Sequence record: PZ445437.1
Strand: one strand, 5' to 3'
Source of the DNA: a phage
DNA length: 64,000 nucleotides
Shown here: piece after piece, positions 2,451-31,366 of the stretch
Layout: each line of letters begins with the position of its first letter
Numbering within the stretch: position 1 is the first letter of the stretch
Notes under the pieces: generated by a model
Seen by the model: only the letters and a program-made list of their open reading frames with translations
The model's database searches: none
Told to the model about the DNA's origin: nothing
Made by a program: the position numbers and the translations under genes

Positions 2451-4133
2451 TTAAACCATTACAGTAAATCGACCAACTTTCTTCATTTGAAGATGCTGAC
2501 CGTATGCTTGCGGGTCATGGTCTCTATGCGAAATAACAAAAACGTTAGTATTTTTTAAACTATCTAAAATAGTTGAAATAGCTTTTACACCTTCAACGTC
2601 GGTCGCTGAATCAAAAACTTCGTCAAGAATTAACGTGTTTATTTTAACACCTGAAACTTTTTCAGCAATATCACGCCAAGTAAATAAAAGAGCAATATCA
2701 ATTCGTGCTTTTTCACCTTGACTGAATGAAGCATAACTAAAATCTTCGCGACCACGGGATTTAATTGTCTCATTAAATTCTTCATCTAATGTAAACACAT
2801 AATCCGCTTCCATTATTTTAAGATAATGGTTAATCTGCTTATTAAATAATGGAATGTACTTTTTAATAATAGCACCTTTAATACCAGAATCTTTGAGCAT
2901 ATCAGTCAAAATTCCTCGGTGGTATTTTTCCATTACTAAATTAGTTTTTGTCTTAACAATTTTATCAAGTTCTTCTTGAAGCAGTGCTATTTCATCAGCA
3001 TGGTCAATAAACTCAGAAGATGCTTTTTCTATAGCCGCTTTAACTTTTTTAGCTTTATCTACCGTTGTGATTAGAGATTGTTTTTTATTGCGAATATCAT
3101 TTGCCAACGACTGCTGGGTTTTAATATTATCTCGGTATTCATCAACAAGAACTTTTAAATTATCACGATGCGTTGAAAGCTGTTCAAACGAATGCGTGCA
3201 TTCAGAAACTTTATCTTTAATTTTAGAAACAACTTTATCACCGGAACTCAATTGTGACAAACAGGTTGGACATAATCCACCTTCGTGATACATATTAATG
3301 ACTTTATTATACGAGTCAATTTTTGATTTAATTAAAACTGCTTCTTGACCGATTTTATTAAATGCATCAGTCGGGTCTTCATCCAAAACAATATTAACTA
3401 ATCTTTCGTTAGCTTCTTCTATTTCCGATTTTAGCGTTCTAGCTTCTTTTGCCAAATCATCATACATATTTTGCAGACGAGTAAGGTTGTCACCTGTTAA
3501 TTTTTTCTGGCGTTCAACGTTATCATTATATATTTTAATTTGTTGGATAATACTATCTTTTTTAACATCAAGCACTTGGTTCTGCGAATTTAATTCACGT
3601 ATTAGTGCTTTATTAAGCTTATCCATTTCAGCTAATGTTCCTACCTCAAGCAGGTCTTCCACAAGCTTTCTTCGCGCAGGGGTCGACAAACCCATGAAAG
3701 GGGTATACCCTGCTGTACCAAGGACAACAATCTGCTTGAAACTGGCATATGACATTCCGATAAGCTGTTCAAATTCTGCTTGGAAATCTTTACTGCTGGC
3801 AGATTCATTAAGACGTGTACCGTTAACGGTGATTTCAAAAACGTTCGGTTTTTGTCCTCTTTTGATATAGTACTTTTTCTCATCATATTCCATCCACAGT
3901 TCAACTAAAAGTTCTTTCTTATTTGTGCTGTTTATTAATTGACCTTTCTTTACATCACGGAATGGCTTGCCAAAAAGCCCAAATGTGATGGCTTCTAACA
4001 TAGTAGACTTACCACCGCCATTTCGTCCAGTAATAAGAGTTTTTTGAACCTTATCTAATTGAATGTCAATAGGATTTCCACCTACTGACATTATATTTTG
4101 ATACCTAACTCGGTTTAGTTTAAAATTCTTCAC
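2451..4133 (-). CDS. 46: recombination endonuclease subunit gp46 (Rad50/SbcC-like ATPase)
   Basis: 560 aa; N-terminal Walker A GRNGGGKST, long central coiled coil with CPTC zinc hook, C-terminal signature and Walker B (LILDEVFD). Confidence 0.92.
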   Translation of the reverse strand: MKNFKLNRVRYQNIMSVGGNPIDIQLDKVQKTLITGRNGGGKSTMLEAITFGLFGKPFRDVKKGQLINSTNKKELLVELWMEYDEKKYYIKRGQKPNVFEITVNGTRLNESASSKDFQAEFEQLIGMSYASFKQIVVLGTAGYTPFMGLSTPARRKLVEDLLEVGTLAEMDKLNKALIRELNSQNQVLDVKKDSIIQQIKIYNDNVERQKKLTGDNLTRLQNMYDDLAKEARTLKSEIEEANERLVNIVLDEDPTDAFNKIGQEAVLIKSKIDSYNKVINMYHEGGLCPTCLSQLSSGDKVVSKIKDKVSECTHSFEQLSTHRDNLKVLVDEYRDNIKTQQSLANDIRNKKQSLITTVDKAKKVKAAIEKASSEFIDHADEIALLQEELDKIVKTKTNLVMEKYHRGILTDMLKDSGIKGAIIKKYIPLFNKQINHYLKIMEADYVFTLDEEFNETIKSRGREDFSYASFSQGEKARIDIALLFTWRDIAEKVSGVKINTLILDEVFDSATDVEGVKAISTILDSLKNTNVFVISHRDHDPQAYGQHLQMKKVGRFTVMV

Positions 4134-11918: not shown

Positions 11919-12389
11919 TTAATCATGTGTCCACACCCCATCGGTATTTGACCAAAGTCGCTGATTATCTGATCCTCGCCACAGCTTTTTAGTCGGAAGA
12001 TTTTTCTCATACTTCCCATCAATAATAACATCAACATATTTAAGCATTTCTAGTTGTTTAATATCTTCAAACTTATATCCTGTCCACAACCAAATGCTTT
12101 TATTGGGATAAAGATTTTTAATAGTTTGAACCACAGAGTGAATCACGTCTCTGTTATCAGGATAAAGAGGGTCACCTCCGGTTATAGTCAATCCTTCTAT
12201 ATAATCATTATTCAAACATTCAATTAATTGTTCTAGTGTTTCACCAGTGAATGGAACACCATTTCTAGCATTCCATGTTGATTTATTATAACACCCTTCG
12301 CATTTATGCAAACAACCTGTAACGAAAAGAACTGTCCTGCATCCAGGACCATTAACAAAGCAGCACGGGTATATTCTGTCATAATTCAT
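11919..12389 (-). CDS. nrdG: anaerobic ribonucleotide reductase activating protein (radical SAM)
   Basis: 156 aa; radical-SAM CxxxCxxC motif (CLHKCEGC) and N-terminal MNYDRIYPCCFVNGPG. Confidence 0.9.
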   Translation of the reverse strand: MNYDRIYPCCFVNGPGCRTVLFVTGCLHKCEGCYNKSTWNARNGVPFTGETLEQLIECLNNDYIEGLTITGGDPLYPDNRDVIHSVVQTIKNLYPNKSIWLWTGYKFEDIKQLEMLKYVDVIIDGKYEKNLPTKKLWRGSDNQRLWSNTDGVWTHD

Positions 12390-13218
12390 TTATATATTTC
12401 CAATTATAGCCTTCAACACTTTTACGTTCGCCATTTAAACATTTTAAAATATTTCCTTTGCTAGAAATATTAAAATATTTTGCTGCGTCTGGTATATAAT
12501 TAAATGTTTTTAAAAGAACACCATCTTTATATGCGCCAAATAAATTAAGAGTATATTTTTCTCGAAGACGCTGATGTTTCCTTTTCATAACCTCAGGATT
12601 TGCATACGCCAACTTCAATGAATTTCTGTGTTTTTCTTTTACTTCAGGTTTTTGCATTGCTAACTTAGTTAGCCTGGAAATTTTATTTCTAACTTCGTCA
12701 GTTTTCATTGCATTTGACAAATTTAATAAAGTTTTATTTCTAACTTCAGGTTTTTGCATTGCTAGCTTAGTTAGTTCTCTATGTCTTTTTCTAAAATCGT
12801 CATCCTTCCATATATTTTTCGATAATTTTGACATAGAGCGGTGAAATAATTCCTTTTCACTGGAATACAATTTAAAAATTTCATCCAATTCATCCGCATT
12901 AAATCTATCGGTATTCGAGTTTATCATTCTATGAAAGGCATAACACATTTTACTATTGCTTGTTTTAGCTAAATAGTAATGAGCTAACGCATGGTCATAA
13001 TATGACAAATTAACAATATTCCATTTATCTGTTTTATATTCAGGAAATATAGATTTGGGAAGCACGTGATGTGCTTCCGTTTTTCCTTTTATTTTAGGAT
13101 TATTATAATTTTTTGTTATCAAATCAACATATGACAATAGTAAATCATTATTTTCTTCAAATATTAAAGATAATTTATCATTCACAAAATCGCAAGGATA
13201 AAATCTATCATAATTCAT
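12379..13218 (-). CDS. mobD: HNH-family homing endonuclease-like protein MobD
   Basis: 279 aa between nrdG and nrdD; HNH-like EAHHVLPKS...HALAHY; repeated basic motifs; N-terminus MNYDRFYPCDFVN copies the nrdG N-terminus. Confidence 0.75.
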   Translation of the reverse strand: MNYDRFYPCDFVNDKLSLIFEENNDLLLSYVDLITKNYNNPKIKGKTEAHHVLPKSIFPEYKTDKWNIVNLSYYDHALAHYYLAKTSNSKMCYAFHRMINSNTDRFNADELDEIFKLYSSEKELFHRSMSKLSKNIWKDDDFRKRHRELTKLAMQKPEVRNKTLLNLSNAMKTDEVRNKISRLTKLAMQKPEVKEKHRNSLKLAYANPEVMKRKHQRLREKYTLNLFGAYKDGVLLKTFNYIPDAAKYFNISSKGNILKCLNGERKSVEGYNWKYINEL

Positions 13219-15032
13219 TGGTGTTTAACCCTATGCATGATTTCTTTATTTTTACCGAGATTAAATCCGCGTTCGTTCGGATTTCCCAAATAACCACATG
13301 TTCTTCTTATTGTGTTCATCTTTTTAGGATCAGTTTCTCCACAAATAGAACAAACAAATCCGTTTTCAGTAGGAGTCATTTCATGGGTACTTCCACATGT
13401 AAAACATTTATCTACTGGCATATTAACACCAAAATAATCTAAATGTTGTGCAGCATAATCCCATACGGCCTCAAGACCCTTTAAGTTATTTTTCATATCA
13501 GGAAGTTCAACATAAGAAATGTGACCACCTGTCGCAATGAAATGATATGGCGCTTCACGAGAAATCTTTTCAAACGGAGTAATATTTTCTTCTACTGAAA
13601 CGTGGAAACTGTTAGTGTACCAGCCTTTATCGGTAACATCTTTTACACTTCCATATTTTTCTGTATCAAGTTTACAGAAGCGATAACAAAGGTTTTCAGC
13701 AGGAGTAGAATACAAACTAAAAGCAAACCCAGTTCTTTCAGTCCACTGTTTAAGACGAGCATTCATTTTAGTTAAAATTTCTCGTCCAATATCACGACCT
13801 ACAAGAATATTCAATTCGTGAATACCAATGTATCCTAGAGACACTGAACTTCTGCCATTTTTAAATAACTCAATTATATCGTCATCAGGTTTAAGACGAA
13901 CCCCGAATGCACCTTCTTGGTAAAGAATAGGAGCAACAGTTGCTTTAACTCCTTTTAAGGAACTAATTCTACACATCAAAGCTTCAAAACACAAATCCAT
14001 TCGCTCATTGAACAATTCGATAAATTTCTGTTCATTGAACTGTGTTCCAATATAAGAATCTAATGCGATACGAGGAAGATTCAGTGTTACAACACCAAGA
14101 TTATTACGTCCATCAAGAATTTCATTACCAGTCGAATCTTTCCATACGCTCAAGAAACTACGGCAACCCATCGGAGAAACAGGAACAGATGAACCAGTGA
14201 TAGCTTTATTGTTCTTAGCTGAAATAATATCAGGATACATCCTTTTGCTTGCGCACTCTAGAGCAAGCTGTTTAATATCATAGTTCGGATCGTCTTTATA
14301 AAGATTAACACCTTCTTCAACAAACATAACAAGCTTAGGGAAAATAGGAGTTATCCCATCACGACCAAGACCTTTAATACGATTTTTCAGAATTGCTTTC
14401 TGAATCATTCGTTCAGTCCAGTCAGTTCCCGTACCAAATGTAATTGTTACAAAAGGCGTTTGTCCGTTTGAACTAAAGAGAGTATTTACTTCATATTCAT
14501 AAGCTTGGAATGCATCGTATACATCTTTTTCTGTTTTAGATTGAGCATAATTCAGTGCATCGGCGATTTGCCATTTTTCTGCATCCTCAATATGTTTTGC
14601 ATAGGTGCGTTTAACATAAGGAGAAAGTACTTTATCTACATTAGCAAAAGTCGTTCCGCCGTATTGATGGGAAGCAACCTGTGCAGTAATTTGTGCCATA
14701 ATTGCAGTAGCAACTCCAATTGATTTAGGAGTTTCAATCTGCGCATTACCAAGCTTAAATCCGTTCTCAAGCATTCCTTTTAAATCTACTAAACAGCAAT
14801 TAGTAAAAGGCAATGATATACTGTAATCTAAATCATGAAAATGAATTAATCCAACATTATGGGCATTTACAATATGACTTGGAAGAATACGACAAGCGAT
14901 ATGTTTAGAAACAATACCGGCCATTAAATCTCTTTTTGTTGGAAAGACGCGAGAATCTTTGTTGGCGTTTTCTGTATTTAATTCTTTATCTTTATTTGAA
15001 ATAAAATTTAAAACATCTTTTTCTAAAGACAT
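13215..15032 (-). CDS. nrdD: anaerobic ribonucleoside-triphosphate reductase (glycyl radical enzyme)
   Basis: 605 aa continuous ORF; C-terminal zinc ribbon (CFTCGS...CSICG) and glycyl radical motif RTCGYLG. Confidence 0.93.
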   Translation of the reverse strand: MSLEKDVLNFISNKDKELNTENANKDSRVFPTKRDLMAGIVSKHIACRILPSHIVNAHNVGLIHFHDLDYSISLPFTNCCLVDLKGMLENGFKLGNAQIETPKSIGVATAIMAQITAQVASHQYGGTTFANVDKVLSPYVKRTYAKHIEDAEKWQIADALNYAQSKTEKDVYDAFQAYEYEVNTLFSSNGQTPFVTITFGTGTDWTERMIQKAILKNRIKGLGRDGITPIFPKLVMFVEEGVNLYKDDPNYDIKQLALECASKRMYPDIISAKNNKAITGSSVPVSPMGCRSFLSVWKDSTGNEILDGRNNLGVVTLNLPRIALDSYIGTQFNEQKFIELFNERMDLCFEALMCRISSLKGVKATVAPILYQEGAFGVRLKPDDDIIELFKNGRSSVSLGYIGIHELNILVGRDIGREILTKMNARLKQWTERTGFAFSLYSTPAENLCYRFCKLDTEKYGSVKDVTDKGWYTNSFHVSVEENITPFEKISREAPYHFIATGGHISYVELPDMKNNLKGLEAVWDYAAQHLDYFGVNMPVDKCFTCGSTHEMTPTENGFVCSICGETDPKKMNTIRRTCGYLGNPNERGFNLGKNKEIMHRVKHQ

Positions 15033-15844
15033 AATTCTAATTTATCCTTTTGAAATTCTTCGTCTAAATATGGGTTCCAACCCATTTTAAACCTTTTGAT
15101 GAAATTATCAATTCTAAATTTCGGTAAGTTTAAATCCGCAAAAATAGATGATTTACTTTTAAAATCTGGACTTAAATAATCATATAAAATTTCTGCGTAT
15201 TTTAACCATAATATACAAGTACCAGATTTAATTGCTCTCGGAGTTTTCCAAGGTTTTACACCATACATCGGATTTCCGCTTCCTTTATGCCTGATAGAAG
15301 ATGAAATTCCAATTTTAATTTTAGCTTCCTTTGTATGCGAAAATCCACGATGTGGATTTTCTTTCCAGTATTTTTTAGAAGCTTCTGATATTTTCTTTCT
15401 GGCTAAATTAGTATGATGCTTTCCATAAAATCCATGATTTTTGCCTTTATTACGATTTCTTTTAATCATGGTTATTGATTGCTTTTCTCTAGTTTCTTTA
15501 GAAGGAGAAATACCATATGTCGTAAATTTGCCATCAGCATATGCTAAATTAAAATACTCTTTATTCCATACATCTTTTTCTATATTCTTTTGAAATTCAG
15601 CTTCAATGCTAGTTATTTGTTCATCTCCGACTAATTGAAAATATAATATTTCAACTTTCGGCGTTTCTTTCAATAAGGCTTTTTGAAATTCGGAAGATGA
15701 CGAAGACGAATAATAAAATTTACCATTTTTATCAATAATATTCGTTCCATCAAAAGTGCAATTGGTTTTACTTCCAATGTAATAATATGGTGGGGTTTTA
15801 GCATTAATTCTATTAATAAATGATAGTTTATATACTACATTCAT
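15023..15844 (-). CDS. free-standing GIY-YIG homing endonuclease-like protein (Seg-like)
   Basis: 273 aa; N-terminal VYKLSFINRINAKTPPYYYIGSKT (GIY-YIG-type) and NUMOD3-like motifs (GKNHGFYGKHHT, GNPMYGVKP); 3' end overlaps the nrdD start by 10 nt. Confidence 0.65.
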   Translation of the reverse strand: MNVVYKLSFINRINAKTPPYYYIGSKTNCTFDGTNIIDKNGKFYYSSSSSSEFQKALLKETPKVEILYFQLVGDEQITSIEAEFQKNIEKDVWNKEYFNLAYADGKFTTYGISPSKETREKQSITMIKRNRNKGKNHGFYGKHHTNLARKKISEASKKYWKENPHRGFSHTKEAKIKIGISSSIRHKGSGNPMYGVKPWKTPRAIKSGTCILWLKYAEILYDYLSPDFKSKSSIFADLNLPKFRIDNFIKRFKMGWNPYLDEEFQKDKLELCL

Positions 15845-16314
15845 TTTAAACTCTTTCTAAGCTGCTTCTTAAATGAAGCTATTAATTGTGTTTTAGTGTC
15901 AGATTCATTATATTCAAATCCTCTTTGAAGCATCTCAGCCATCATTTCCTCTTTTCCTAAACGAGAAAATTCCTTTGATTTATCTCCAACGAAGTTAGGG
16001 TGAATATTATTTTGGGTGTAATCGGATTTTAAATAAGTAAGTAAATTTTCTAACCATTCAAGATAATCAACTCCTTGTCCCTTTAAGCCAGAACGATTAA
16101 ATTTATGCTTCATTTGACCTTCTGCGGCATTGCAGAGATTACAAAGCAATCCACGTACCTTTCCTGCTTTTGGTCCATTTAATTCATGGTCATGGTCGAG
16201 GTGATTAGCTTGAACATCAGGATTTAGTTCTCGTTGGCAAATTAAGCATTTACCATTTTGTGCATCATAAAATTTCTGTTTTTCTTCTTTATATAATTTG
16301 CCAGTCAATAACAT
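15841..16314 (-). CDS. 49: endonuclease VII (Holliday junction resolvase) gp49
   Basis: 157 aa; MLLTGKLYKEEKQKFYDAQNGKCLICQREL... with CxxC...CxxC zinc site and HLDHDH motif, as recalled for T4 gp49. Confidence 0.9.
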   Translation of the reverse strand: MLLTGKLYKEEKQKFYDAQNGKCLICQRELNPDVQANHLDHDHELNGPKAGKVRGLLCNLCNAAEGQMKHKFNRSGLKGQGVDYLEWLENLLTYLKSDYTQNNIHPNFVGDKSKEFSRLGKEEMMAEMLQRGFEYNESDTKTQLIASFKKQLRKSLK

Positions 16315-27173: not shown

Positions 27174-27635
27174 TCATTGAGTTTTAATTACTGCTTTAGA
27201 AGCCTTTCCTGGTAAACGACGACTGTTAATAATTGCCATCCTACATTGAAGTGACGGGTCTTTGAACTTCTCGTTAGGTTTACAAACTGTAAATCCAAGC
27301 CAAAGATTTCCATCTGTGATTTCTAAACGTCCAGGACGATATTCAACCCCATCAATAAAATCCTCGTCAATGTCAGGACGCGGAGGCATACTCAGGAATT
27401 CATTAACTTCTAAAACATGGTCTTTTATTTTATGGAATAATTCAAAAACATATGTCTCATCAATCTCCCGCTGAATTGCGCGATCAAGAAGATGCTGAGA
27501 ATATTTTAGATGAAACGATGAGACCCCTGCTGCTTTTGATGCCTCACGAATCTCATTGTTAATTTGACGAAACTCCGACTCAAAGTGACGACGAAGCTTA
27601 TTTCGACGAATAAAAACTTCTGTATTGATAGTCAT
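27174..27635 (-). CDS. regB: endoribonuclease RegB
   Basis: 153 aa; sequence and position consistent with T4 RegB; RBS AAGAGGAGAA and early promoter upstream. Confidence 0.75.
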   Translation of the reverse strand: MTINTEVFIRRNKLRRHFESEFRQINNEIREASKAAGVSSFHLKYSQHLLDRAIQREIDETYVFELFHKIKDHVLEVNEFLSMPPRPDIDEDFIDGVEYRPGRLEITDGNLWLGFTVCKPNEKFKDPSLQCRMAIINSRRLPGKASKAVIKTQ

Positions 27636-27662
27636 GTTGTTCTCCTCTTAACTGATAGAAAA

Positions 27663-27692
27663 ATTATACCACAGTCAAGAGGAAAAGTAAAC
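27663..27692 (-). promoter_or_regulatory. T4-type early promoter upstream of regB (-35 GTTTAC, extended -10 TGGTATAAT)
   Basis: Minus-strand GTTTAC at 27687-27692 and TGGTATAAT at 27663-27671. Confidence 0.6.
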
Positions 27693-27694
27693 AG

Positions 27695-28015
27695 TTATTC
27701 TTTAAATCTAATCAATTTATTCATAGACTTTGAAACTTCTGCACGAACCTCATGTAGATTTTTGAGCTGTTCAAGACGCTGCGTATAGTAAGCAATTTCA
27801 TCTTCTTCGAGACAGTCCTGCGAATCTTCTTTAAGATAACGTGCATAGTCCTGAAAAGCGTTACGGATTACTTCCTGGAAGTCATCAAGACTTTGAATTT
27901 TCTTAGGAGCAGCAGATACACGACAAGGGGCAGTATAATACTCATAACCAAACCCTGCGCTTAATTGAGCCATTAGTATTTTTCCTCTGGTTGGAACACT
28001 GCACGACAAGCCCAC
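27695..28015 (-). CDS. hypothetical protein
   Basis: 106 aa ORF, start uncertain. Confidence 0.4.
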
Positions 28016-28275
28016 ATACTGGCTTCTTTGAGTTTCGTTTTAGCAATAGTTAACTGATCGAGGCTTTCGGCGTAATTCTTCGCGAGTTCATCATCTTCAC
28101 AGCTATCAAATGCTTCCCAAAATTCATCGTATAAAGCATCAAAGATAAGTCCTAAACGAACTTCAGCGTCTTTAATAGCATTTACTTTACCGATTTTTTC
28201 GTCGGTATGTGGCTTATAACCTTTAATATCTTCAATCATATTTGACTTCCTCACCAGTACATAAATCGTATTCAA
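27973..28275 (-). CDS. hypothetical small protein; by synteny a candidate Vs.4/Acb2-like anti-CBASS sponge
   Basis: 100 aa ORF three genes upstream of regB; assignment rests on recalled T4 gene order only. Confidence 0.3.
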
Positions 28276-28453
28276 CTAAACGAATAGGTTCATGAATGCC
28301 ATATCCCTGAACAGAAATTTCTGTAGTAGGATAAATTCCATTAATATCACCCATGTTCCATGCTTCGTTAAATTGCTGTTCGCCTGAATTACTAAACCAT
28401 TCGGCGAAAGCATTTAGCACATCTTCAGAACCTTCAATAATTATCTTTGCCAT
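28232..28453 (-). CDS. hypothetical protein
   Basis: 73 aa acidic ORF. Confidence 0.4.
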   Translation of the reverse strand: MAKIIIEGSEDVLNAFAEWFSNSGEQQFNEAWNMGDINGIYPTTEISVQGYGIHEPIRLVEYDLCTGEEVKYD

Positions 28454-28815
28454 TACAAACTCTCGGTAAAGGTACGAGCGATAACGTCGCGCTGCTGTTC
28501 CGGAGTCAGAGAGTTAAAGCGAACTGCATAACCGGATACACGGATGGTCAGCTGCGGATATTTTTCCGGATGCTTAACTGCATCTTCCAGAGTTTCGCGA
28601 CGCAGAACGTTAACGTTCAGGTGTTGACCACCTTCAATTTTAACTGTAGGCTGTTGCTCAATTTCAATTTCACGGGCATGCAAACCGTAGAAAATTTCTG
28701 GGTCTACAAAAGAGTCCTCTTTAAAGGTTTTGGAGACAATAATTCGTGCTTGAATACCATCTTCAAAATAAATAGTACCTTTATGTGTGCCTTCAAGAAT
28801 TTGATATGCTTTCAT
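28453..28815 (-). CDS. GrcA/YfiD-like autonomous glycyl radical cofactor
   Basis: 120 aa; C-terminal RVSGYAVRF glycyl-radical motif in a small stand-alone protein. Confidence 0.75.
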
Positions 28816-28822
28816 ATAAACC

Positions 28823-29203
28823 TCAATTAGAAAATAAATTTATCCAAGATTGTTCTTTAATTAAAAATGGCTCAGAATCATATGCCATTAAACTTTGCGT
28901 AATTAATCCTTTAAAAGGTCCATCAATAAATTCCATGGTAAAATATGGAATTTTATTCATTAGCCGTGCATTAGGAGCAGTGCACAAAACTCTGCATCCT
29001 TTGAATACGCCTTTTTGTAATTTGTATTGCTTAGGATAAAATTCACTTAAAATGTTATTTTTTGCCAAAATTTCAAAATGATTCACCAATTTATTTTTAA
29101 TAGTTTTTGGTGAAAAATAAAGATACTCGAAAAGTTGCGCATCTGTCATCATTGCATTCCGATTACGAAAAACTGCGGACGAGTAATACCACCAATGCAA
29201 CAT
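28823..29203 (-). CDS. hypothetical protein
   Basis: 126 aa ORF; start probably internal. Confidence 0.35.
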
Positions 29204-29736
29204 TTACTATTACAGCAGTAGTGTACAGTGTCAATATGGACACTATAAATCTTATCCATATCAGGAGATTTGACAGGCTCATCAATTATATACAAAATTC
29301 GCGAAAGCGATAAACCTCTGAACTTGCTTCCTTTATTACCAATAAAACTGCGCACAGAATCAGTAAATAAACGAAAACGTATATCATCATTAGAATAACG
29401 CGAAAATTCCTTTTTAATGTTATTTGCAGAAATTTTAGCGTAAGCTGAAGTATTAGAAAGAACAATAACTGTTCCGCCATCATACAGCCAATTAGCAGCA
29501 AAGTTAGTCACAGCAATTGATTTACCAGATTGACGTCCACCGTCTAGTCGAAGTGTGCAGTACTGTTTAAGTAATTCTTCAAATGGCGGGATATATTCGT
29601 TTTTACAAATTTCTTCTACTCTAGCATCAGAATGGTGTGTAAAAGCATTCATCAGGGATAGATAAGGACCAGTTAAAAATGTTCTCATTTTCTTCTCTCT
29701 AAGTTTGGGCCATTCCATGGCGCATGAATTGTCCAT
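29149..29736 (-). CDS. P-loop NTPase-like protein
   Basis: 195 aa; Walker A-like GGRQSGKS and Walker B-like LYIIDEP. Confidence 0.45.
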   Translation of the reverse strand: MDNSCAMEWPKLREKKMRTFLTGPYLSLMNAFTHHSDARVEEICKNEYIPPFEELLKQYCTLRLDGGRQSGKSIAVTNFAANWLYDGGTVIVLSNTSAYAKISANNIKKEFSRYSNDDIRFRLFTDSVRSFIGNKGSKFRGLSLSRILYIIDEPVKSPDMDKIYSVHIDTVHYCCNSKCCIGGITRPQFFVIGMQ

Positions 29737-29829
29737 TTCTGTATTTACCCATTACCGCACTTGGGCTCGACCTTATTACAGGTTGGCGGGAATCCCTCAC
29801 AGAATCATGAGGTCCAGGTTGTTCCCATA

Positions 29830-30303
29830 TTATTTGAACGATTTAACGTACTGAATAGAACCTTTACTATTCACAAAGGCAATTTTACCATTTTTGTTAT
29901 ACATGGTAGCAGTACGTTGATAGCCATAAGTTTGTTTACCAGATTGATAACCAACTAATGCAAAATTATCTTCACCCATTTTATTCTGTTTAGCGCGAAT
30001 GCGTTCATGGCCATGTGCCATAAGAACCTTAGCATCACCTGTTGCAATGGATCGACGAGTTTTTTCATCTTCAACTGTATTAACAAAGTCGTCAAATGAA
30101 TCAAATTTAGCATGAGATTTATTATACAGTTTTCCATCTACTGCATAATTATATCCTTGTACATCCATCTCAACTTCTGTACCATCATCCAGTACAGCAG
30201 TGATTTTCTGTCCTTTTTTAAATTTCAAAAGATCAGTAAAAGATTCAGCAATAATTTGAGAATTAATAGTTGCTTCAGTAATAAATTCTTGATATGTTTT
30301 CAT
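29830..30303 (-). CDS. internal-protein-like protein with prohead-protease capsid-targeting sequence
   Basis: 157 aa; starts MKTYQEFITEA, the conserved capsid-targeting N-terminus of T-even internal proteins. Confidence 0.6.
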   Translation of the reverse strand: MKTYQEFITEATINSQIIAESFTDLLKFKKGQKITAVLDDGTEVEMDVQGYNYAVDGKLYNKSHAKFDSFDDFVNTVEDEKTRRSIATGDAKVLMAHGHERIRAKQNKMGEDNFALVGYQSGKQTYGYQRTATMYNKNGKIAFVNSKGSIQYVKSFK

Positions 30304-30363
30304 GTGTATCCTTTAAATGTAAATATTTTAATTAATAATTTGGCTCTTCAAGTAACTGTGAAT

Positions 30364-30393
30364 ATACTATCACAATTCTAGGAGAAAGTAAAC
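30364..30393 (-). promoter_or_regulatory. T4-type early promoter (-35 GTTTAC, -10 TGATAGTAT)
   Basis: Minus-strand GTTTAC at 30388-30393 and TAGTAT at 30364-30369. Confidence 0.5.
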
Positions 30394-30397
30394 AACT

Positions 30398-31366
<969 letters not shown>

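Follow-up and report, generated by a model that had tools for sequence, protein, structure and literature searches.

The window analysed in this study, a stretch of DNA of 64,000 nt in all, comes from a T4-type phage (Tequatrovirus). An ATG-to-stop open reading frame lies exactly at positions 28453 to 28815 on its minus strand in the list of open reading frames, and its product is a protein of 120 amino acids with a calculated mass of 13.9 kDa. The gene and the features immediately around it are as follows, the functional assignment of the ribosome-binding element being putative:

28821 to 28824, minus strand: Shine-Dalgarno-like GAGG, 5 nt upstream of the vs.6 ATG (reverse complement ...TTGAGGTTTATATG)
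28453 to 28815, minus strand: vs.6, assigned from its open reading frame, its Pfam, NCBIfam and PDB matches, the position of vs.6 in T4 and 118 of 120 residues shared with T4 NP_049730.1
28531 to 28533, minus strand: codon of Gly95, the predicted radical-bearing glycine in RVSGY, aligned to the glycyl loop of pyruvate formate-lyase (PFL) and GrcA
28232 to 28453, minus strand: vs.5 open reading frame, with its start at 28453

In a nucleotide search, the 1.3 kb around vs.6 had 98-99% identity to many phages of Escherichia, Shigella and Citrobacter, whose records describe the gene either as "autonomous glycyl radical cofactor" or as "pyruvate formate-lyase". The nucleotide identity reached 100% with a gene of Citrobacter phage PhiZZ23 that is annotated as pyruvate formate-lyase/GrcA. 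The protein was identical to T4 Vs.6, also called Y06I (NP_049730.1), at 118 of 120 positions, with Q54 and R73 in place of the P54 and H73 of T4. The name vs.6 is used in phage KMB40 and in the T4 reference, where the gene has vs.7 and vs.5 as its neighbours, with e on its upstream side and regB on its downstream side; the same gene order was found around it in the window. Both the near-full-length match and the vs.7 - vs.6 - vs.5 locus thus identify it as an orthologue of T4 Vs.6/Y06I (Straboviridae; PHROG 1209). Homologues were present in 1512 phage records, which included T4-like, RB43-like, RB49-like, T5-like, Aeromonas and jumbo phages. The open reading frame is almost certainly the Tequatrovirus gene vs.6 (T4 Y06I), encoding a phage-borne autonomous glycyl radical cofactor, and nothing was found against this identification. 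This core finding is already known, and hundreds of phage genomes carry an annotation of the gene. For a protein whose function has been published, gaps persist in the databases, where many GenBank phage records call it a "hypothetical protein" or, misleadingly, a "pyruvate formate-lyase".

The genes of this region are tightly packed. The stop codon of vs.7 (28823-25) overlaps the Shine-Dalgarno-like GAGG of vs.6, and the stop codon of vs.6 (28453-28455) overlaps the start codon of vs.5 (28451-28453) in the sequence TAATG, an arrangement of vs.7, vs.6 and vs.5 that is consistent with translational coupling. Scans of positions 27600 to 30400 gave no usable signal, either for promoters (14 promoter-like sites, as compared with 10.5 +/- 3.5 in shuffled sequences) or for terminators (2 terminator-like sites, as compared with 1.2 in shuffles); the model used for these scans lacks the T4 early and middle promoters.

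Several differences from T4 were observed nearby. No homologue of denV (endonuclease V), which in T4 and KMB40 lies between vs.8 and e, was detected by tblastn at E<=1e-3 in the 64-kb window. The T4 Vs.8 protein matched the window vs.8 (29149-29800) in two pieces, at 29800-29678 and 29736-29152, and the longest open reading frame there has 195 amino acids as compared with 219 in T4, which points to a frameshift, or to another start, as compared with T4. Moreover, T4 ipII and ipIII are replaced by a single open reading frame of 157 amino acids (29830-30303, minus strand) that is 31% identical to IPII. Its product begins with MKTYQEFITEA, a start that resembles the capsid-targeting leader of the T4 internal proteins.

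The vs.6 product has the architecture of a small stand-alone protein, in a family of about 120-127 amino acids, with a leader and one glycyl-radical domain. Pfam PF01228 (Gly_radical) gave a single match at residues 60-101 (2.5e-18), and the NCBIfam model TIGR04365, "autonomous glycyl radical cofactor GrcA", matched with an E-value of 1.2e-45 and 154.9 bits, as compared with 2.5e-25 for the NCBIfam PFL model. Among structures, the NMR structure of E. coli GrcA/YfiD (PDB 6OWR) matched residues 22-120 (9.3e-42), and the E. coli PFL structures 1H16 and 1CM5 matched at 5e-26, with residues 58-120 aligned to PFL 697-759; the other glycyl radical enzymes listed reached 4e-12 or weaker, against the 5e-26 of PFL. 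A hand count of the alignment gave 49 identical residues of 63 (approximately 78%) between this segment and PFL 697-759, and the C-terminal 60 residues were identical at all 60 positions to E. coli GrcA 68-127. The glycyl loop is therefore of the PFL type, with RVSGY in a C-terminal domain whose nearest relative among glycyl radical enzymes is PFL 697-759, and Gly95 aligned with Gly102 of GrcA and Gly734 of PFL. A sequence-only reading of this DNA had described a 120-residue protein that ends in RVSGYAVRF. The size and the motif were correct; the latter occupies residues 92-100 and is thus C-terminal, with 20 residues after it. The same reading had taken the protein for a spare part like GrcA/YfiD, and this is borne out by the Pfam (2.5e-18) and 6OWR (9.3e-42) matches and by the fact that the near-identical T4 protein has been tested experimentally; the alignment with GrcA revealed strong similarity to GrcA and to the PFL C-terminus, which decisively contradicts an absence of similarity to them.

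At full length, the protein missed the NCBIfam equivalog cutoff for bacterial GrcA (154.9 as compared with 170 bits) because its N-terminal half is divergent, with only 15 of 60 residues identical to E. coli GrcA. It was therefore assigned to the phage (Vs.6) branch and not to the bacterial-type GrcA equivalogs; the T4 protein is nonetheless named GrcA in RefSeq. The phage family PHROG 1209 (phrog_1209) matched residues 1-120 at 5.7e-63; it carries the PHROGs label "unknown function" because of the same N-terminal divergence.

The function of this family has been established for two of its members. Wagner et al. (2001, PMID 11444864), a report also cited for YfiD and Y06I in a 2026 review (PMC13450708), reportedly described both proteins as autonomous glycyl radical cofactors that reconstitute oxygen-fragmented PFL. 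Andorfer et al. (2021, PMC8683613) counted only YfiD and Y06I as validated spare-part proteins and attributed the rescue to a radical put on YfiD or Y06I by PFL-AE and to a complex with oxygen-cleaved PFL. According to the 2026 review, spare parts are known only for formate-lyases (PMC13450708). On this basis, the following sequence of events may be proposed for the phage protein. In an anaerobic or microaerobic host, PFL would carry its radical on Gly734, where oxygen would cut the chain so that the last 26 residues are lost. Vs.6 would then bind the cleaved PFL, its C-terminal 60 residues taking the place of the lost glycyl-radical domain, and the host activase PFL-AE (PflA) would put a new radical on Gly95. 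PFL activity (pyruvate + CoA -> acetyl-CoA + formate) would thereby restart and sustain the fermentative ATP supply during infection, and the rescued PFL might also sustain formate for the phage's own anaerobic ribonucleotide reductase, NrdD. These four steps are the published biochemistry of E. coli YfiD and T4 Y06I, and they would extend to the window protein on the grounds of its motif, its homology and synteny, the selection on it and its near-identity to the protein tested. That PFL-AE activates it and that it rescues cleaved PFL, as published for T4 Y06I with its 118 of 120 identical residues, are accordingly to be read as predictions here. The likely benefit to the phage would be a continued supply of acetyl-CoA/ATP and formate in the oxygen-fluctuating gut. 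The literature searched, of which the coverage was incomplete, contained no in vivo phenotype of vs.6 in infection. The gene illustrates well how a lytic phage can bring along a repair part for a fermentation enzyme of its host.

The N-terminal half deserves separate consideration. YfiD has been divided into a disordered region (residues 1-60) and a structured region (61-127) (PMC8683613). The C-terminal domain of YfiD has the fold of PFL 693-759, and its N-terminal half favours both the association with cleaved PFL and the installation of the radical; the function of the N-terminal region has also been called enigmatic (2026 review, PMC13450708). In the window protein this half shared 43 of 60 residues with that of Klebsiella phage JD18, as compared with the 15 of 60 shared with E. 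coli GrcA, and AlphaFold2 on the single Vs.6 sequence returned a mean pLDDT of 34.8 and a pTM of 0.29, values too low for the model to be informative on the order of this half. Between the window and JD18, dN was 0.20 and dS was 1.52 in the N-terminal half (dN/dS approximately 0.13). In general, the N-terminal half had dN/dS values of approximately 0.1-0.2 and the C-terminal half had lower ones, and vs.6 is under purifying selection. Given the role of the YfiD N-terminus in PFL binding and activation and the few residues shared with it, the phage version may therefore differ from GrcA in kinetics, affinity, regulation or partner preference. The same observations bear on the idea that Vs.6 is a modulator or decoy, which would sequester PFL-AE or bind intact PFL/TdcE and so redirect host fermentation. 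An N-terminal half that is so unlike GrcA and yet selected among phages would suit such a role, since in YfiD it is this half that governs cleaved-PFL binding and the efficiency of activation; moreover, GrcA is reported (Kammel and Sawers 2022) to act on inactive full-length PFL in vivo. Against this, T4 Y06I was published as restoring and not inhibiting PFL activity (PMC8683613), and the strict conservation of the radical domain as a whole (60/60), catalytic glycine included, would be needless for a decoy. A decoy is thus extremely unlikely, and repair of PFL is the reading followed here.

The sequence-only reading had also pointed out that the phage encodes NrdD and its activase NrdG and had suggested that the protein might serve glycyl-radical enzyme activity, by extension also that of NrdD. 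Both genes were confirmed in the window, as follows:

13215 to 15032, minus strand: nrdD, anaerobic class III ribonucleotide reductase, intron-less, 605 aa (PF13597 5.2e-171; Gly_radical 1.3e-25)
11919 to 12389, minus strand: nrdG, radical-SAM activase of NrdD (Fer4_12 9e-49; Radical_SAM 9e-8)

In this region, nrdD is flanked on both sides by homing-endonuclease-like open reading frames on the minus strand (12379-13218 and 15023-15844), the former of 279 amino acids, with an I-HmuI NUMOD-like match that falls short of the Pfam cutoff, and the latter of 273 amino acids, containing NUMOD3. Next comes gene 49 (endonuclease VII) at 15841-16314.

The extension to NrdD fared less well. It would make Vs.6 a spare part for the oxygen-cleaved C-terminal radical domain of the phage NrdD, activated by NrdG. 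The presence of both genes in the window together with vs.6 is in keeping with it, and Nolan et al. (2006) speculated about a role of vs.6 in nucleotide metabolism. Furthermore, in the unrelated jumbo phage ph0011 of Escherichia (OP557969.1, Asteriusvirus) a GrcA-like gene of 120 amino acids (2324-2686) lies directly between nrdD (507-2312) and nrdG (2990-3469), where a DUF4326 gene is also found. On direct comparison, BLASTP of Vs.6 against the window NrdD detected no significant similarity (best E=2.4), in the C-terminal glycyl-radical/Zn region or elsewhere, and the glycyl loops were not aligned; the Vs.6 C-terminal domain, by comparison, matched GrcA at 60 of 60 residues and PFL at approximately 78%. 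In addition, Vs.6 lacks the Zn-binding C-terminal domain that forms part of the NrdD radical domain (PMC4493059), and the restriction of known spare parts to formate-lyases (PMC13450708) also argues against it. The ph0011 homologue, too, keeps the PFL-type motif RVSGYAVRF, and its position beside nrdD and nrdG, which is explained equally well by metabolic coupling via formate, is therefore read as such coupling and not as NrdD repair. Repair of NrdD by Vs.6 is consequently very unlikely. As a structural replacement for a part of NrdD, Vs.6 was rejected, and it was retained only as a metabolic link through formate. The anaerobic ribonucleotide reductase of T4 uses formate, as does that of the host. 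For E. coli, formate is reported as the hydrogen donor of the class III ribonucleotide reductase (Mulliez et al. 1995). As PFL makes formate, a metabolic link from PFL to NrdD is plausible.

At the nucleotide level, vs.6 proved to consist of three segments of different character:

28638 to 28815, minus strand: phage-specific 5' part, gene nt 1-178 (approximately residues 1-59), GC3 0.23, 15/60 residues identical to E. coli
28466 to 28637, minus strand: host-identical patch, gene nt 179-350, with 172/172 nt identical to E. coli grcA, GC3 0.47
28453 to 28465, minus strand: phage-type last 13 nt (ACC GAG AGT TTG TAA minus first base), with 4 synonymous differences from E. coli

Pairwise alignment of the 5' half with E. 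coli grcA gave near-random nucleotide identity, whereas the patch, which encodes the structured glycyl-radical domain with its beta strand, Gly loop and C-terminal helix, was identical to the host gene, and the GC content climbed from approximately 0.35 to 0.50 across it. In a BLAST comparison, all 5426 of 5426 complete E. coli genomes matched vs.6, only at gene nt 179-363 and at 95-99%; in all matches listed, the identity to E. coli over nt 179-363 was 97.8%. The 5' breakpoint, at about residue 60, coincides with the boundary between the disordered (1-60) and structured (61-127) regions of YfiD, and the phage-type last 13 nt mark the 3' edge of the host patch within the gene. A 3' crossover inside vs.6 is the simpler reading, since homology to the host is absent downstream. 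The idea that the changes in the last 13 nt served as a ribosome-binding site for vs.5 was dropped, as the GAG change is absent from T4 and RB69.

The patch is shared by T4, by RB69 (Mosigvirus) and by a Tequatrovirus isolated on Hafnia, which were 98.8-99.4% identical to E. coli over 171 nt, and 632 phage records matched the E. coli grcA 3' segment at 95-99%. Among bacteria, grcA was 91.8% identical to that of E. coli in Citrobacter and 82.5% identical in Salmonella. The dS of the patch relative to E. coli was 0-0.024 across phages and 0.023 for the window; for reference, the dS of E. coli grcA was 0.073 relative to a sister Escherichia clade and 0.42 relative to Citrobacter. Comparison of the window with RB69 gave a dS of 0.42 for the 5' half and one of 0.024 for the 3' half, and the flanks were 70-74% identical in nucleotide sequence. 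The patch is therefore much younger than the split of these phage lineages. Taken together, vs.6 is very probably a mosaic of a phage 5' half and a host-derived 3' half.

These 172 nt identical to E. coli, with their host-like GC content, could also be viewed as host DNA without function that is passively carried, either as a relic of illegitimate recombination or as an assembly artefact. Such a fragment would not be expected to sit in frame inside a complete open reading frame between a 5' half and a last 13 nt of phage type, nor to be shared, at one and the same locus, by hundreds of isolates of independent origin, the T4 reference included. Moreover, homologues with phage-like codon usage exist in many other phage genera, and dN/dS is well below 1 in both halves. 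This view has scarcely any probability left and is effectively refuted by the conservation and the selection. Assembly contamination and an artefact of laboratory passage were likewise rejected, since the patch lies in frame between phage-type sequences and is carried by T4, by RB69 and by over 600 independently isolated phages.

A second host-like type was found in Klebsiella phages. The 3' halves of Jiaodavirus (JD18, PSE-D1 and Shinkou) were 95.3-97.1% identical to K. pneumoniae grcA (JD18 95.3%, PSE-D1 97.1%) and 86.5-88.9% identical to E. coli grcA, and 106 phage records matched the K. pneumoniae grcA segment at 95-99%, with a maximum of 98.2%. The window and JD18 were compared with E. 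coli and K. pneumoniae as a quartet, in which informative sites were classed as host-tracking, as a phage/bacteria split or as other. The 5' half contained 1 host-tracking site, 60 sites that split phages from bacteria and 3 others; the 3' half contained 17, 1 and 0, respectively. Diverged 3' halves that are not host-like (66-84% identical to the hosts tested) occurred in Karamvirus, Winklervirus, Pseudotevenvirus, Slopekvirus, Krischvirus and the T5-like, Aeromonas and jumbo phages, and in several genera without a host-like patch the 3' halves were AT-rich. No Salmonella-type patch was seen in the phage collection, in which no phage matched the Salmonella grcA 3' half at more than 90%. For Enterobacter, 2 phage records matched the grcA 3' segment at >=99%, which could reflect a third host-type patch or prophage records flanked by host DNA. 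The host grcA DNA was taken from PLSDB records, including K. pneumoniae CP125156.1; PLSDB holds chromosomes labelled as plasmids (for example, a 5.37-Mb record). The grcA gene of K. aerogenes (LR134122.1) is annotated as truncated, with one extra A in GGAAAAAATACCC that is probably a sequencing error, and removal of this A restores a full GrcA of 127 amino acids.

Bacterial grcA genes have diverged evenly in both halves, in the order Escherichia - Citrobacter - Klebsiella - Salmonella, and the discontinuity exists only in the phage genes. The transfer was therefore from host to phage, and a transfer from phage to E. coli was rejected on the same grounds. The data support at least two independent replacements, of which that in Tequatrovirus/Mosigvirus would be of the E. 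coli type and that in Jiaodavirus of the K. pneumoniae type. The simplest reading, indicated by these comparisons of sequence, is that vs.6 is an old phage gene whose radical-domain half has probably been replaced by host grcA DNA at least 2 times through homologous recombination in a conserved region. Recurrent overwriting by the grcA of the current host would keep the spare part matched to the PFL and PFL-AE of that host, either as adaptive matching or as neutral conversion, and the phage-specific N-terminal half would meanwhile evolve independently. No published description of the vs.6/grcA mosaic was found in the literature searched, of which the coverage was incomplete; that the mosaic is at once real, host-derived, recurrent and undescribed is a proposition to which we give slightly less than an even chance. 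If true, it would be a clear case in enterobacterial phages of domain-precise gene conversion between host and phage in an auxiliary metabolic gene, and the 3' patch would represent a datable host-to-phage conversion in phages that degrade host DNA.

With respect to known systems, the closest is T4 Vs.6/Y06I, which has the same length of 120 amino acids, the same place between vs.5 and vs.7, approximately 98% nucleotide identity with its flanks and likewise an E. coli-type 3' patch. Only 2 substitutions separate the window protein from it, and at position 73 the window protein keeps the residue of E. coli GrcA (R). E. coli GrcA/YfiD (P68066; 6OWR) is likewise a stand-alone protein of approximately 14 kDa with the RVSGY loop and an identical stretch of 60 C-terminal residues; unlike it, the phage protein is 7 residues shorter, has an N-terminal half with only 15 of 60 residues in common and belongs to a phage family of its own, PHROG 1209. 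In addition, vs.6 resides in a lytic phage genome, whereas the host grcA locus is between ung and eamB. The C-terminal domain of PflB (697-759; 1H16, 2PFL) aligns with residues 58-120 of the vs.6 product from end to end, including the Gly734 loop and the C-terminal helix, but the vs.6 product is a free-standing domain without the 10-stranded barrel and without catalytic cysteines of its own. For the mosaic, a parallel is cyanophage psbA, for which intragenic recombination between host and phage was reportedly described by Zeidner and colleagues in 2005 and by Sullivan and colleagues in 2006. psbA is also an auxiliary metabolic gene of phages with host-exchanged segments, mosaic nucleotide identity and GC shifts, but the gene, the host group and the phage biology are different. 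Furthermore, unlike in psbA, the segment exchanged in vs.6 coincides with a single structural domain, and in each of two phage lineages it matches the genus of the lineage's own host.
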